64,000 bases of DNA from positions 1 to 64,000 of the IMG/VR virus record IMGVR_UViG_3300045988_111115. The stretch is one strand, 5' to 3'. The notes under the pieces were generated by a model. That model saw nothing but the letters and a program-made list of their open reading frames with translations. It ran no database searches and was not told the origin of the DNA. Positions 15,231 to 20,232 of this stretch are shown here, piece after piece. The first letter of the stretch is position 1; every line of letters starts with the position of its first letter. The position numbers and the translations under genes were made by a program. Source of the stretch: a virus.

Positions 15231-15814
15231 AAGCTGAGATTAAGGTAAATGATAAAGTAATTGAAGTAGAACTAACTACAGAACAAATACAAGAGTTAGG
15301 ACTATTTGATGAGCCAAAGAAAAAGAAAACGGGTTTTGAGCCTACATCAATAGGCGGAGACTATTATATTATAACAACTCATAATGTTGAAAAGCATATT
15401 AATAGAGGGAATGGAAATGATATTCAGAATCGGGCTTCAGATAACTATTTCACAAGTTATGACCTTGCTTCTGATTTAAGAAGAGCCTTTCATCTTAATC
15501 TCCGAATGTTAAAGTGGCAAGCAGAAAATGATGAACCTGCATATGCTTATGACATAGAGGGCTTTGCTTTTGGCCGTTATATTATAACTTACTTCTATAA
15601 TGCTAATACCTATACAGGAGACTTGTGTCCTAAGTGTGTTAAGCCTGAATACAGTTCACCATTTATGGTGTACTTTAGTTCTGAAGAGAAAGCGTGGAAA
15701 GCTATAGAAGAGTTTAGAAGAGATTTAATATGGTATCACGAAGCATTTAAGTGTAGAAGAGATACTATAACCGAAAGTGATATAAGAGTGAAAAATGGAG
15801 GGCAATTATGTTGA
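15227..15814 (+). CDS. Hypothetical protein (CPKC motif)
   Basis: 195-aa ORF with ATGA overlap. Confidence 0.5.
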   Translation: MKAEIKVNDKVIEVELTTEQIQELGLFDEPKKKKTGFEPTSIGGDYYIITTHNVEKHINRGNGNDIQNRASDNYFTSYDLASDLRRAFHLNLRMLKWQAENDEPAYAYDIEGFAFGRYIITYFYNANTYTGDLCPKCVKPEYSSPFMVYFSSEEKAWKAIEEFRRDLIWYHEAFKCRRDTITESDIRVKNGGQLC

Positions 15815-16680
15815 GGAAGATTATACCCTTAGTCAATAACCTAAGTAAGCTTTATATCCTTAATGAAGAGGGTGTACCTTGTTTTGTACACTCTAAGGAA
15901 TACCCTAATGTTGCAACACAACCAATAGTGCCACGCTTCAATGGTTATACCTGTGTTGAAGACTATATGAAAGATGATATAAAATACATAGTACCTATGA
16001 CCGCAAAAGAGATTGAAAGCAAGGAAGAGCAGTTAGAAAAGTTGCAGAGTAAAGACTTCTATGTTGAAGAAAAGTTTGACGGTACAAGAGGTATAATGCA
16101 CTTTTATACTTGTGACCCAAAAACACTTAGAGAAAAGTACTACCCGAACTATAAGGAAGATGAAAAGCAGTATCTAAGTGTATGCCTGTTACAAGGAAGC
16201 TCGATTGTAGACGGTAAACGCAGAATTTATGACTACTTTCTGACACACTCTAAGTCTAAGGATAGAGTAGACTTTTTAAAGCAAGAGTATGGTATAGGAG
16301 GGTATACAGGTTATCCCATATCTTGTAGCTTTAACAGTAAAGGTTTTACTATAGATATGCCAAGTGACAAAGAGATAAATGGACGTTATAGTAAAAGCAT
16401 AACTTACACGTGGAAAACTATTGCCGAAGAGATACAACACCTGATAGATATAAAGCACTACTATGCACAAAAGGGTTATACAAGAGTGTTCAGTAGACGT
16501 GAAAGCAAAAAGACAGGTTGGCTCACTGAGAATACAGATAGTGTACCACAGCTAAGAGATTTAAACCGACCTGAACTTGCAGGTACTATAATTGATGGTG
16601 AGATGTTTATACCTAATCAACCTTTTAAAGCTGTAGCAAGTACCCTAAACTGTAAGTGGGTAACTAAACTGTTACAATAA
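15808..16680 (+). CDS. ATP-dependent DNA ligase, 5' exon or N-terminal fragment (motif I KFDGTRG, motif IV IIDGEM). The frame stops at the insertion boundary
   Basis: EEKFDGTRG is the KxDGxR adenylation motif and DGEMF is motif IV. Motifs V and VI are absent here and found in ORF 19216..20232. Confidence 0.8.
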   Translation: MLRKIIPLVNNLSKLYILNEEGVPCFVHSKEYPNVATQPIVPRFNGYTCVEDYMKDDIKYIVPMTAKEIESKEEQLEKLQSKDFYVEEKFDGTRGIMHFYTCDPKTLREKYYPNYKEDEKQYLSVCLLQGSSIVDGKRRIYDYFLTHSKSKDRVDFLKQEYGIGGYTGYPISCSFNSKGFTIDMPSDKEINGRYSKSITYTWKTIAEEIQHLIDIKHYYAQKGYTRVFSRRESKKTGWLTENTDSVPQLRDLNRPELAGTIIDGEMFIPNQPFKAVASTLNCKWVTKLLQ

Positions 16681-17200
16681 ATATAAACAAATCTGCACAA
16701 ATTTGTGCAGTGGTATAGATTTTATTAAGCAGAAAGCCCTTTGTATCGAGAAATCGGTGCAAACTCAGTGTTAATTGCTTTTAATCCCTAAAGCCTTACA
16801 CCTAAACAGTAATCCGAAAGGATAAACTGAACGGTACGAAAGTAGAAAAAACGTAAGGATGGCATATGGTGAAATAAAAGTACCTCAGTGTTAATGATAG
16901 GACAGATAATTTCTGACGTGACACATTAAAAACGGGTATCCTAAGTGCTTAAGCAATGGGTGTTTAGCAGCGAAAGCCCTAAGTCTTTTTATAAGATATG
17001 GGACACGTTCAACGACTATCTCCTTGAGGGAGAGTAAAACCACAAGCTAATGGTGGAAGAAAAATACTGCCCCACACTACTATGTGGGTGAAGATATAGT
17101 CTACGCTTATGTGAAAGCATAAGAGGTCTGTCGGTAACGATAAGACTGCTATAAGGTTGCGACTTATAGTGAATGAGATAAATATATACATATTTAATTT
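16681..17200 (+). ncRNA. Group I intron catalytic core (P4: aattgctttt 16773-84 with aagcaat 16951-57; R gttcaacgactat 17007-19; P8 hairpin 17071-88; S aagatatagtct 17091-102)
   Basis: Matches R consensus GUUCA.GACUA and S consensus AAGAUAUAGUCY; P7 gacta:tagtc; 18-nt perfect palindrome 16693-16710. Confidence 0.65.
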
Positions 17201-17261
17201 ATTTATATAAATCTATTGACAACAATATAAAATTATGATACCATAGATATATAAAAATAAT

Positions 17262-17897
17262 ATGGTGGTGAATTTTATGGAATTGTTAAGCATAGGTAAA
17301 TTTGCTAAAACTGTAGGAGTAACTACGACAACATTAAGAAGAATGCATCAAAGTGGCGAGTTAATTCCTGCACATATTTCAAATGGTGGAACAAGGTATT
17401 ATTCTACGGAACAATTAAAATTATTCCAATCAAGTAATAATGAAAGAATAGTTATTGGTTATTGTAGAGTAAGTACTCCATCACAAAAAGACGATTTAGA
17501 AACACAAGTACAAAATGTTAAATCATATATGTATGCTAAGGGATATAAATTTGACATTATAAAAGACATTGGTTCGGGTATAAATTATAAAAAGAAAGGT
17601 TTAAAAGAACTCATTAATAGGATAGAAAATAATGAAGTTTCTAAAGTTGTAATTTTATATAAAGATAGGTTGATTCGATTTGGATTTGAATTAATTGAAT
17701 ATTTGTGTGAAATTAATAACGTAGAAATAGAAGTTATAGACAATTCGGAATGTAGTAAAGAGAAAGAATTAACAGATGATTTAATTCAAATTATTACAGT
17801 TTTTGCGAATAGATTGTATGGACAACGTTCAAAGAAAACAAAACGACTTATTAATGAGGTGAGAAACAATGCTGATAACAAAGAAAATCAGACTTAA
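17262..17897 (+). CDS. tnpA: IS607-family TnpA: serine recombinase with an N-terminal MerR-like HTH
   Basis: LSIGKFAKTVGVTTTTLRR HTH; IGYCRVSTPSQKDD catalytic Ser motif; alternative start 17277; upstream TTGACA at 17215. Confidence 0.8.
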   Translation: MVVNFMELLSIGKFAKTVGVTTTTLRRMHQSGELIPAHISNGGTRYYSTEQLKLFQSSNNERIVIGYCRVSTPSQKDDLETQVQNVKSYMYAKGYKFDIIKDIGSGINYKKKGLKELINRIENNEVSKVVILYKDRLIRFGFELIEYLCEINNVEIEVIDNSECSKEKELTDDLIQIITVFANRLYGQRSKKTKRLINEVRNNADNKENQT

Positions 17898-19047
17898 ACC
17901 GACAACTGAACAAGAAATATTATTTCGTAAAAGTGCTGGTGTATCGAGATGGGCATATAATTTCTTTTTAGGTGAGAATGAACGAATATACAGAGAGTAT
18001 ATTGACAATGGAAAAGTTGGTAAGAAAAGCATTAGCGAAGGTGATGTTAGGAAATACATAAATAATATATTAAAACCAACTACTCATTCTTGGCTCAAAG
18101 AAGTTGGAAGTAATGTAATGAAACAAGGTGTTAAAGATGCCAGTCTTGCATTGCAAAGATATTTTAAAGGCTTGTCTGGAAAGCCCAAATTTAAGTCCAA
18201 ACATAAAGACAGACCGAGTTTTTATGTCAATTATGAAAGTCTTTCAAGAAAACAAGGTGGTTTTCAAGGAGAAAAAATAGGCTTTGTAAAAACATCGGAG
18301 GCACTTCCTAAACTAAATAAAAATGAAAAATATTCAAATCCAAGAATAACGTTTGACGGAAAATATTGGTATCTATCTGTTGGCTATGAAGTGCAAGAAA
18401 GCACAGTGGAATTAACAGACGAAAGTTTAGGAATAGATTTAGGAGTTAAAGATTTAGCAATTTGTTCAAACGGAAAGGTTTATAAAAATATAAACAAAAC
18501 TCAAAGAGTTAAAAAGTTAGAGAAGAAACTAAAACGTGAACAGCGAAAATTATCAAGGAAGATTGAAAATAATATTCAATCATATAAATCAAATAGAAAC
18601 CCTATATACAAAAGACCTTTGAAAGAATGTCAAAACATTCAAAAACAAAATCGTCTAATACGAAATATACATAGAAAACTTGCAAATATTCGTCAAAACC
18701 ATTTACATCAAACAACGACAGAGATAGTGAAAACCAAACCATCTCGAATAGTTATGGAAAGTTTAAATGTAAGTGGAATGATGAAAAATAAACATTTATC
18801 AAAAGCAATACAACAACAAAAATTTTATGAATTCAAAAGACAAATTGAATATAAGTCAAAACTAAATGGGATTGAATTCATTCAAGTTGATAAGTTTTAT
18901 CCAAGTAGTAAAACTTGTAGTTGTTGTGGAAATATCAAGAAAGATTTAAAACTTTCGGACAGAATGTATAAATGTGATGTTTGTGGTCTGGTTATTGACC
19001 GAGATTACAATGCAAGTATAAATTTAGCAAATTATGAAGTTATATAA
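17869..19047 (+). CDS. tnpB: TnpB (OrfB) RNA-guided nuclease; RuvC-I/II/III acidic residues and C-terminal zinc finger present
   Basis: GIDLGVKD (D), VMESLN (E), CSCCG...CDVCGLVIDRDYNASINLA (D plus Zn finger); 29-nt overlap with tnpA. Confidence 0.85.
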   Translation: MLITKKIRLKPTTEQEILFRKSAGVSRWAYNFFLGENERIYREYIDNGKVGKKSISEGDVRKYINNILKPTTHSWLKEVGSNVMKQGVKDASLALQRYFKGLSGKPKFKSKHKDRPSFYVNYESLSRKQGGFQGEKIGFVKTSEALPKLNKNEKYSNPRITFDGKYWYLSVGYEVQESTVELTDESLGIDLGVKDLAICSNGKVYKNINKTQRVKKLEKKLKREQRKLSRKIENNIQSYKSNRNPIYKRPLKECQNIQKQNRLIRNIHRKLANIRQNHLHQTTTEIVKTKPSRIVMESLNVSGMMKNKHLSKAIQQQKFYEFKRQIEYKSKLNGIEFIQVDKFYPSSKTCSCCGNIKKDLKLSDRMYKCDVCGLVIDRDYNASINLANYEVI

Positions 19048-19234
19048 ATTCACTTAAAAGAATTATATAACTATGTACCTATCGCTATTAGGGAATTTAC
19101 GTCTATGGAGTGTCATAACAAATGAAAGTAGCTACGGCAAAATCAGACACGTTGAAGTAGAAAGTCTTAATCGTGAGATAAGGCACAGTATAGATTTATA
19201 TAAATTAGTTGTAATTTGTATATGTTTATCATAG
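19048..19234 (+). ncRNA. IStron 3' segment: candidate omega-RNA scaffold and intron 3' end / 3' splice site
   Basis: Non-coding 187 nt after the tnpB stop; stem-loop-prone sequence (cacgttgaag...cttaatcgtg); abuts the ligase exon 2. Confidence 0.4.
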
Positions 19235-20232
19235 CGGATAAAGCTATAACAAGACAGCTTGAATTAGGTGGTGTAGTATTCCACGCTTTTGATATACTTT
19301 TCTTTAAAGGTATTGACTTACGTAAAATGCCTTTGGAAAGACGTAAAGTGTATCTGCATATAGTATGTGATACTTTAAATTCACCTTTTGTGAAAGAGGT
19401 AAAGTACTATGATGAAGACGGAATAGTAGTACCCCTTTTAAGTATGTCTGATAGGGATAGAATATTGAATAACCCTGAACTATATCCGAATTTAGCTGAG
19501 GATATAAAGCACTATATGTCAAATGCACTGTATTATGAGGAAGATGAGAGTAATGACGGTGAGCCTTTACCTTTTAGAATTTCCAAAGCTTCTTACTATG
19601 AGTATATAGTCTTTACAGGAGGAGAGGGAGTAGTAGTAAAGCCTAAGACAGGTAAGTACTATCACAAAAGAGGTAGAGAGTATGAGAAGATAAAGAAGTT
19701 CCTAACAAGAGAATGTATTATCTGTGGTTTTACCCCACCTACACAAGCGTATAAGGGTAAGTTCCCTGATGATAGTTGGTCCTATTGGATAGACAATGAG
19801 ACAGGAGAAAAGCAAGACCCTGAAGAGTGTGCTAATATGTCAGCTAAGAAGTTACAAAAGACTTGCACACCTGTTACAAAGTACTACTTTGAAAATTGGG
19901 TAGGTAATGTAGAGTATGGAGTGCTAATCTCCGAAGATGAGATTAAGAAGTTACCTAAGAACAAAAATCACGATATTAGGACAGTCGAAGTATTGACAGA
20001 CTATAATGACAGAAAGTATCTAAAAGTACTTGTTGTAGGTGAATGTAGTGGTTTTGATGATGATGAGAGAGCGTGGTTTACTGAACATAAAGATGAAGTA
20101 ATCGGTCAAGTAATCGAAGTCAAAGCTAATGAGATATTCAGAGATACAGGTAAACTTAGACACCCTCGCTATTTGAGACTAAGACCTGATAAGTCGGCTG
20201 AACAGTGTACCTTTAAAGAGCATATACTTTAA
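19235..20232 (+). CDS. ATP-dependent DNA ligase, 3' exon or C-terminal fragment (AFDIL...PLERR, motif V EGVVVK, OB-fold region); exact exon start uncertain
   Basis: HAFDILFFKGIDLRKMPLERRKVYL and GGEGVVVKPKTGKYY; the open frame begins after the stop at 19201; the track ORF starts at TTG 19216. Confidence 0.7.

Follow-up and report, generated by a model that had tools for sequence, protein, structure and literature searches.

CboIStron, an experimentally dissected element on C. botulinum BKT015925 p1 (NC_015417.1), consists of a group I intron followed by a serine-recombinase gene (tnpA), tnpB and the scaffold of a TnpB guide RNA (Zedaveinyte et al., bioRxiv 10.1101/2023.11.20.567912; Mortman and Sternberg, NAR 2026, PMC13521648). 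Its left end is marked by TGGG and its right end by CGG. The scaffold folds into five stem-loops (SL1 to SL5) and a pseudoknot (PK), the 3' strand of which lies directly against the 3' splice site; the AU-rich SL5 overlaps the pairing at the 3' end of the intron. All of these features recur in a 64,000-nt stretch of the virus record IMGVR_UViG_3300045988_111115 (positions 1 to 64,000; the whole stretch is referred to as the window), which is a region of an uncultured phage. The segment from 16661 to 19237 on the positive strand is, as its homology and its ends identify it, a 2577-bp IStron of the insertion sequence (IS) family IS607 (group B), and it lies in the phage gene for an ATP-dependent DNA ligase. 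CboIStron, in contrast, is found in a Rha-family regulator/antirepressor region on a plasmid. The right end of the window element very probably encodes a TnpB guide-RNA scaffold with a ligase-derived guide, whose use would compete with group I splicing.

Group B IStrons were surveyed by Tourasse et al. (2014, PMC4227781) before the TnpB guide RNA was discovered. They include CbISt3/ISCbt4 in phage c-st, SrISt1 in Selenomonas and BcISt1. Like the window element, they combine a GG-ending insertion site and a CGG end with an IA2-type intron, an IS placed after P9.2, an inverted-repeat (IR) stem with an AU content of >80%, a direct repeat located before the 3' IR arm, and a U-G pair shifted by one from the 5' splice site. 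Their reported lengths of 2559 and 2583 bp are close to the 2577 bp found here. The hairpin that the survey described as "3' direct repeat plus 3' IR" corresponds to SL5. Relative to the elements of that survey, the window copy represents a new insertion, and the phage that carries it is uncultured.

The guide RNA of IS607 TnpBs ("reRNA") was described as a RAGATH-18 motif with a 5' flank of ~40-50 nt and a 3' flank of ~60 nt; that of ISFba1 has a ~187-nt scaffold, a 20-nt guide and two pseudoknots, and its cryo-electron microscopy structure has been solved (Ren et al., Cell Res 2024, PMC11061315). The window locus shares with ISFba1 the RAGATH-18 core, a 5'-flank hairpin whose loop pairs as a pseudoknot with the scaffold's 3' end, and a ~390-aa nuclease with the RuvC D-E-D residues; in both, the scaffold measures ~187 nt and leads into a guide of 20 nt. 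ISFba1 differs in being a plain IS607 element with an AGGAG motif and no intron, so its 3' flank carries no splicing duty (PMC11061315).

Results

A structured RNA follows tnpB

A preliminary description of the window had taken the 187 nt after the tnpB stop codon as non-coding, prone to form stem-loops and a candidate for the TnpB guide RNA (omega-RNA). Their non-coding, structured nature was borne out; their length was not, the non-coding tail being 190 nt (19048-19237). The RAGATH-18 model (RF03064) matched positions 19102-19163 of the positive strand over its full extent (1-71) with 73.5 bits, against a gathering score of 44.9, and an E value of 7e-13. This was the sole Rfam match above gathering score in the 64 kb, and a permissive rescan returned the same match. 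It starts downstream of the tnpB stop at 19047, on the same strand. No second RAGATH-18, intron-core motif or guide match was found elsewhere in the window. When 19036-19257 was folded as a single sequence, the z-score was -2.88, and 2 of 200 shuffled sequences folded as well. Taken together, the RAGATH-18 match and the z-score place the feature downstream of tnpB well beyond chance. A 53-aa mechanical open reading frame (ORF; 19073-19234) overlies the scaffold RNA, and its frame is broken by indels in relatives. The segment is a structured RNA, not a coding one.

To this segment we applied a covariation analysis, in which the right ends of 20 distinct elements were aligned and pairs were counted for SL2, the RAGATH-18 stems and the pseudoknot. 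Standard pairs occupied 95.3% of cells, as opposed to 37-43% when the 3' partners were slid by 1-3 columns. Compensatory changes, on both sides of the pair, were found in 21 of the 26 pairs, and the observed score was reached by none of 500 shuffles. All four pairs of the SL2 stem showed such changes, with 95% of cells paired. The pseudoknot between the SL2 loop (PK-1, 19083-19088) and the bases before the terminal G (PK-2, 19231-19236) was paired in 89.6% of cells, and three of its pairs had changed on both sides. Its two strands read CGAUAC/GUAUCG in Cbo, CGCUAC/GUAGCG in Selenomonas and CGUUAC/GUAACG in the viral contig L016. At the right end, the window element has AGCGG and Cbo has UCGG; the pseudoknot sequence differs between the two, but the difference is compensated. 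RNAalifold, given the six closest right ends, independently recovered SL1, the pseudoknot helix, RAGATH-18, SL4 and SL5. A comparison of right ends also placed a comparable scaffold downstream of more distant tnpB relatives, whose TnpB proteins are 31-60% identical. Another candidate pseudoknot, CUAUG at 19103-19107 with CAUAG at 19230-19234, was dropped: it is not conserved in Cbo, and the covarying partner is the SL2 loop.

As delimited by these alignments, the scaffold is the last ~166-200 nt of the element (about 19038 or 19072 to 19237) and comprises SL1, SL2, the RAGATH-18 core, SL4, SL5 and the pseudoknot. It begins slightly 5' of 19048, with the tnpB stop codon included in SL1. The omega-RNA that the preliminary description had placed at the right end of the IStron is thus supported by RAGATH-18, covariation, an intact TnpB and homology to CboIStron, and a structural comparison with known TnpB scaffolds returned the RAGATH-18 match in an SL1-SL5/pseudoknot layout like that of Cbo. 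SL1 is dispensable in Cbo, where TnpB cuts the RNA just past the homologous position, at a processing site 42 nt into the 221-nt right end (PMC13521648; bioRxiv 10.1101/2023.11.20.567912). By analogy, the mature guide RNA of the window element would start near 19072.

A further complementarity was seen at the junction of scaffold and guide. The guide bases GCUAU (19243-19247) are complementary to AUAGC of PK-2 (19231-19235) and identical to the core of PK-1 (19084-19088). They could form a small hairpin spanning the 3' splice site; alternatively, PK-1 could face competition from the guide. The hairpin appeared in the single-sequence fold only and, at 5 bp, may be due to chance.

The predicted guide matches empty alleles of the ligase

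The preliminary description had proposed that the guide is read from ligase exon 2. The predicted guide does lie there, directly past the element end (19238-19257); its length of 20 nt was taken from the ISFba1 optimum (PMC11061315). The guide sequence ATAAAGCTATAACAAGACAG is present once in the window. Six transposon-free alleles of the same ligase, from six different samples, have TGGG followed by a 20/20 match to the guide. These samples are ERR3153805, ERZ27293504, ERR13362161, ERZ10621178, ERZ27268458 and DRR875195. One of the alleles, the one with long flanks, is on contig L057, which encodes the natural ligase P0001; the contig lacks the 2577 bp, and its flanks, each compared over ~5 kb, have 99.4% identity to the window. 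Its empty site is located at L057:4834-4883, and the further empty alleles are on L058-L062. These sites were found via protein search and contig look-up; an exact-pattern scan of viral_contigs for the empty site TGGGATAAAGCTATAACAAG gave zero matches. Twelve distant, uninterrupted ligases keep the TGGG (in the W-D codons) and have mismatches to the guide at 3-7 of the 20 positions.

The 90%-identity cluster of the ligase contains eight 615-aa members together with 290-aa and 336-aa fragments, the products of the split gene, on 3 contigs. With the empty alleles, these show that filled and empty states of the ligase both circulate. Judged by its sequence, the empty allele is a perfect substrate. 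The cleavage of intron-less ligase alleles envisaged in the preliminary description therefore has natural targets with both TGGG and a 20/20 match, and the cutting itself would be expected from the behavior of relatives. Such natural empty sites with perfect targets were found for the window element, unlike CboIStron.

The element bases that precede the guide in the carrier are GCGG. Their C falls at position -3, the most strictly discriminated position in Cbo (bioRxiv 10.1101/2023.11.20.567912; PMC13521648), so the carrier should be spared TnpB cutting. In this we assume for the window TnpB the TGGG specificity of its Cbo homolog.

The differences between L057 and the window that are nearest to the site are 1909 nt upstream and 205 nt downstream of it. 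We considered this spacing as a sign of co-conversion and set it aside, one genome pair being too few to interpret.

Both proteins of the element retain their catalytic residues

TnpA of the window element is 80% identical to CboTnpA, and the catalytic serine is kept (S66, equivalent to S67 of Cbo). TnpB shares 68% identity with CboTnpB, in which D189 is the residue that aligns with D190. The window TnpB is intact, with the RuvC triad (D190, E297 and D377) and a CxxC...CxxC zinc finger. Its top PDB match was 8iaz (E 3e-78), with which it was also aligned and which we take to be the complex of ISFba1 TnpB with its guide RNA.

A copy of the whole IStron, 98.1% identical, was found at L032:1789-4369 (IMGVR_UViG_3300029114_000038). 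It lies in frame in an amidase-like ORF (...KTDHW/GRNCLDS...) in a phage with no further relation to that of the window, and its own flanking guide, GCAGAAATTGTCTTGATAGC, is unlike that of the window. This sister copy points to recent movement of the IStron between phages.

These observations bear on whether the nuclease arm is in use. It is conceivable that the scaffold is real and the nuclease idle, that the element persists by clean splicing, and that the ligase guide is a passive result of where it landed. The activity of the window TnpB is indeed predicted from relatives, tnpA has decayed in many group B IStrons (PMC4227781), and perfect-target empty alleles are the commoner form in public data (eight 615-aa proteins versus one 290+336-aa pair on 3 contigs), which means that the element has not swept the population. 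We nonetheless consider an idle nuclease unlikely: the tnpA and tnpB ORFs are full length with catalytic residues, the presence of a nearly identical copy in an unrelated phage, and there in another gene, speaks for recent mobility, and compensatory upkeep of the scaffold helices and the pseudoknot would be unexpected without selection for TnpB binding.

A related IStron, with a TnpB 69% identical to that of the window, was found at one shared site (...AACGG/AACGGCTAAAGC...) in Hominimerdicola aceti and on nine viral contigs (L016, L033-L036, L040, L044, L049 and L051). Its left end diverges from that of the window element over the first ~80 nt. This distribution suggests a prophage-borne copy fixed in that lineage.

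A promoter-like sequence, TTGACA-17-TACCAT with an upstream TG, lies at 17216-17244 (+), where it directly follows the 5' IR arm and precedes tnpA. It was the top site in a consensus scan (10/12), although the number of sites in the scan was not above that in shuffles, and TTGACA is likewise present at the matching place in the Cbo and c-st elements. We infer from these matches a possible promoter. Transcripts from an active promoter at this place would not include the ribozyme, which would leave them only the fates of mRNA and guide RNA.

The scaffold overlaps the 3' end of a group I intron

The first part of the element (16661-17175) could be aligned over its full length with the introns of Cbo, c-st and Selenomonas, with a mean column identity of 82%. 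Its consensus fold, obtained with RNAalifold, had 143 pairs, 39 of them with compensatory changes. In the predicted P1, G16658-G16660 and U16661 pair with G16736-C16739, and U16661-G16736 forms a U-G pair one position inside the intron. Group B IStrons have 5' exons that do not end in U and a U-G pair shifted by one (PMC4227781). An internal guide sequence was looked for by eye at the start of the intron, whose first ~30 bases contain no pyrimidine-rich partner for UGGG; RNAalifold puts the partner at 16736-16739.

Close to the right end, the bases 19189-19231 form with 17176-17216 a long AU-rich IR stem of the kind described for group B IStrons (PMC4227781). Its RNAduplex energy was -34.2 kcal/mol, compared with -11.2 +/- 3.0 for shuffled sequences, none of 500 of which was as low. 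Nowhere in the rest of the element did a stretch come near this energy, except for segments overlapping the stem. The 13-bp core of the stem (17177-17189 with 19218-19230) contains a compensatory U-A to A-U swap relative to Cbo. The same bases, folded locally as SL5, reach -10.9 kcal/mol, as opposed to the -34.2 of the long stem. The last 18 nt differ from those of Cbo at four positions: in the IR stem, one of these changes yields a G-U pair and another is compensated, and the remaining two are compensated in PK-1. This pattern suggests that the splicing fold and the guide fold are both under selection.

The consequences of such an overlap were worked out for Cbo (PMC13521648; bioRxiv 10.1101/2023.11.20.567912). 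There, self-splicing at the element boundaries was shown by experiment, needs only the last 18 nt of the right end, and is repressed by TnpB and by guide-RNA structure. Mutations in PK-1 abolished cleavage and left splicing intact or raised it, whereas GC pairs at the base of SL5 abolished splicing and not cleavage. The stability of the SL5 base decides between splicing and guide RNA. By analogy, the window IStron would splice at its boundaries. The preliminary description had anticipated an overlap of the scaffold with the 3' splice site and a competition between the two; homology to CboIStron lends this support, the competition being expected from the experiments on that element. The idea itself is not new, the mechanism having been published for the IS607 IStron family.

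Could the segment be nothing more than the 3' end of a group I intron, made up of the IR stem, P9-type elements and the terminal G, with no role as a guide RNA? Even though 19189-19231 does pair with the intron side and splicing in Cbo needs only the last 18 nt, the IR stem involves only the last ~49 of the 190 nt, and the remainder matches RAGATH-18 and covaries as SL2 and pseudoknot, neither of which has a role in splicing. The persistence or rise of splicing in Cbo PK-1 mutants, the scaffolds downstream of tnpB genes with products only 31-60% identical, and the intact tnpB all make this explanation very improbable. The preliminary description had also envisaged that the region might prove to be only group I P9 with no omega-RNA scaffold; a scaffold was found.

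The element ends at CGG, and its removal would restore the ligase frame scarlessly

In a distant-mode BLASTN search against plasmids, 16661-19237 matched the CboIStron locus of NC_015417.1 with ~72% identity across 97% of its length. Further matches were to the c-st phage/plasmid and to Selenomonas pSRC1, whose elements are CbISt3 and SrISt1 of Tourasse et al. 2014 (PMC4227781).

Four independent lines of evidence agree on the boundaries and fix them. First, in four elements with unrelated flanks, conservation begins just past TGGG (16657-16660) and ends at CGG (19235-19237). Second, homology with the sister copy covers exactly 16657-19237. Third, all 12 uninterrupted phage ligase homologs read STLNCKWDKAI without a gap across the site. 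Fourth, BLAST matches to L057 break at 16660 and resume at 19236, with GG common to both sides. TGGG was constant in the four aligned elements, the sister copy, the 12 uninterrupted homologs and the six empty sites. The terminal CGG of Cbo is needed alike in excision, cleavage and splicing (PMC13521648; bioRxiv 10.1101/2023.11.20.567912). Insertion after a GG-ending site together with a CGG end is the rule for group B IStrons (PMC4227781), and the window element, inserted after TGGG and ending in CGG, follows it.

The insertion point is the TGGG within a conserved ligase motif (STLNCKW/DKAI). Removal of the element restores the ligase frame scarlessly, and the empty site agrees with this in its DNA as well. 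A 615-aa ORF results when 16660 is joined to 19238, and it is 100% identical to P0001. The preliminary description had instead placed the 5' splice site after U16678 and the 3' splice site after G19234 or G19237. With such sites, 16661-16678 would be exon, and the spliced RNA would have ...GUAACUAAACUGUUACAAU next to exon 2. Both joins keep the frame, and group I introns normally have U at -1, but this arrangement has next to no chance of being correct, since five elements whose flanks are unrelated all conserve 16661-16678 as part of the element, the six or seven residues that it would add (VTKLLQ plus S or Y) are absent from the 12 homologs (CKWDKAI ungapped in each) and from P0001, the empty sites are without these 18 nt, and group B 5' exons are known not to end in U (PMC4227781), matching the U16661-G16736 pair. 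The boundary is TGGG/U (16660/16661). As for the omega-G, conservation, the sister copy and the empty alleles place it at 19237, one of the two positions proposed, and exclude 19234.

The 9-nt string CTAAACTGT is present twice near the left boundary: in ligase exon 1 just before TGGG (16646-16654), where it encodes the conserved LNC residues (TLNCKW), and at the element start (16664-16672). The repeat is probably a coincidence, because there is no such resemblance at the L032 and Selenomonas insertion sites.

Gene callers split the ligase into 15808-16680 (290 aa) and 19216-20232 (336/338 aa), and one source labels the 290-aa piece "hypothetical protein". A look-up of the exact exon-1 ORF product found no record of it. 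The annotation is hereby corrected to a single 615-aa ligase gene in place of two fragments. Downstream of the ligase come a terminase gene, its product sharing 49% identity with the Bacillus phage BCD7 terminase, and after it a portal gene. The GC content is 36.3% in the window and 30.2% in the element. No tRNA genes were found in the window. The coordinates of all features are listed in Table 1.

Table 1. Predicted features of the ligase-IStron locus, in window coordinates
Feature	Coordinates	Strand	Basis or remark
DNA ligase exon 1, ends ...AAG TGG G	15808..16660	+	ORF, Pfam DNA_ligase_A_M
TGGG, transposon-adjacent motif/target motif beside left end	16657..16660	+	Matches TGGG of CboTnpB/TnpA
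IStron	16661..19237	+	BLASTN vs Cbo, L032 copy and empty sites; boundary shiftable by 2 nt (GG on both sides)
Group I (IA2-type) ribozyme part	16661..17175	+	Alignment, RNAalifold
5' arm of long AU-rich IR stem	17176..17216	+	RNAduplex with 19189-19231
tnpA, serine recombinase (MerR helix-turn-helix + Resolvase)	17277..17897	+	Pfam; mechanical ORF starts at 17262
tnpB, RNA-guided nuclease, 392 aa	17869..19047	+	Pfam HTH_OrfB_IS605, OrfB_IS605, Cas12f1-like_TNB
SL1 of precursor guide RNA	19038..19072	+	RNAalifold, 6 right ends, compensatory pairs
SL2 (CCUA/UAGG)	19078..19092	+	Loop 19083-19088 (CGCUAU) is PK-1
RAGATH-18 motif, core of IS607 TnpB guide-RNA scaffold	19102..19163	+	Rfam; stems 95-100% paired, compensatory changes
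SL4	19164..19184	+	RNAalifold, 6 right ends, compensatory pairs
SL5, AU-rich terminal hairpin	19190..19229	+	RNAalifold; same bases as 3' arm of IR stem
PK-2 (AUAGCG), pairs with PK-1, directly before terminal G	19231..19236	+	Covariation
Terminal CGG of right end	19235..19237	+	Invariant; G19237 is last scaffold base and intron terminal G
Predicted guide AUAAAGCUAUAACAAGACAG, also start of ligase exon 2	19238..19257	+	First bases past element end
DNA ligase exon 2	19238..20232	+	ORF, Pfam; start is 19236 if shared GG is assigned to other side

Discussion

At this locus we observed the sequence anatomy, the homology, the covariation, the exact boundaries and the natural perfect targets; what is expected of RNA processing, TnpB binding, DNA cleavage, splicing and their competition comes by analogy from the experiments on Cbo and ISFba1. 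As the scaffold and the group I intron require the same 3' bases, one transcript could take only one of two routes. In the first, 19189-19231 would pair with 17176-17216 and close the intron around the IS genes, G19237 would serve as the terminal G, and splicing would restore the ligase mRNA and separate the scaffold from its guide. In the second, SL5 and the pseudoknot would form, and TnpB would bind and trim the RNA to yield a nuclease complex. This complex would cut TGGG followed by ATAAAGCTATAACAAGACAG, the empty ligase site. Cutting of the empty site could restore the element after its excision by TnpA and could copy it into co-infecting sibling phages that lack it.

Several points weigh against this interpretation. 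The activity of the element is extrapolated from relatives at 68-80% protein identity. The motif recognized by its TnpB is assumed to be that of Cbo, while ISFba1-type IS607 TnpBs use AGGAG or GAGGG motifs (PMC11061315). SL4 is ~15 nt shorter than in Cbo, though SL4 is dispensable there (PMC13521648; bioRxiv 10.1101/2023.11.20.567912). The minimum-energy fold of the single sequence gives 19101-19195 a pairing other than that of RAGATH-18; we set this fold aside in favor of the one supported by covariation. The pairs of P1 (GGGU with GCCC) are invariant, so P1 is consistent with the structure but unproven. Finally, the Rfam group I intron model Intron_gpI (RF00028), which has a 50-bit cut-off, had no match in the window at E values up to 10. 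The same search gave no match in the 98% identical sister copy or in the validated Cbo intron, and the Selenomonas relative scored 49.7 bits, just below the cut-off. Since the validated Cbo intron is likewise missed, the lack of a match carries little weight against a ribozyme. RF00028 is insensitive to this clade of introns, and standard annotation will therefore miss them.

Phage group I introns with homing endonucleases, such as T4 td with I-TevI, place a self-splicing intron in an essential or conserved gene. The endonuclease cuts the intron-less allele, and the intron thereby spreads in mixed infections. The arrangement of the window IStron is similar, with the differences that its nuclease is RNA-guided and that its mobility to new sites comes from a serine recombinase. 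Because the guide is copied from the flanking exon, the specificity of an IStron resets at every insertion.

By cutting the ligase gene of siblings, the IStron might in this phage lineage be both an RNA-guided gene drive and a weapon in contests between co-infecting phages. We put this forward tentatively, at somewhat less than an even chance. If it is true, repair from the element-bearing genome would copy the IStron and neighboring markers, splicing would keep the carrier's own ligase working, and the system would be an RNA-guided counterpart of the competition by intron homing endonucleases in T-even and jumbo phages. We found no published report of TnpB-guided drive or competition in phages, and the CboIStron paper is without discussion of phage hosts.

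The splice-or-guide mechanism is already established for a close relative, and the window element thus adds no new principle to it. What is new is the phage setting, together with the natural occurrence of the allele in both its filled and its empty form. The phage ligase carries, within a conserved motif, an IStron that is apparently complete; an element-free phage, nearly identical and with a perfect target, is present in several public samples; and the amidase-like gene of another phage contains a sister copy with 98% identity. Together these make a natural test bed. With it, one may ask whether TnpB guide RNAs drive homing between viral genomes, how splicing and guide formation are balanced in a host gene that a single infection cycle probably requires, and whether such elements shape gene exchange between phages.

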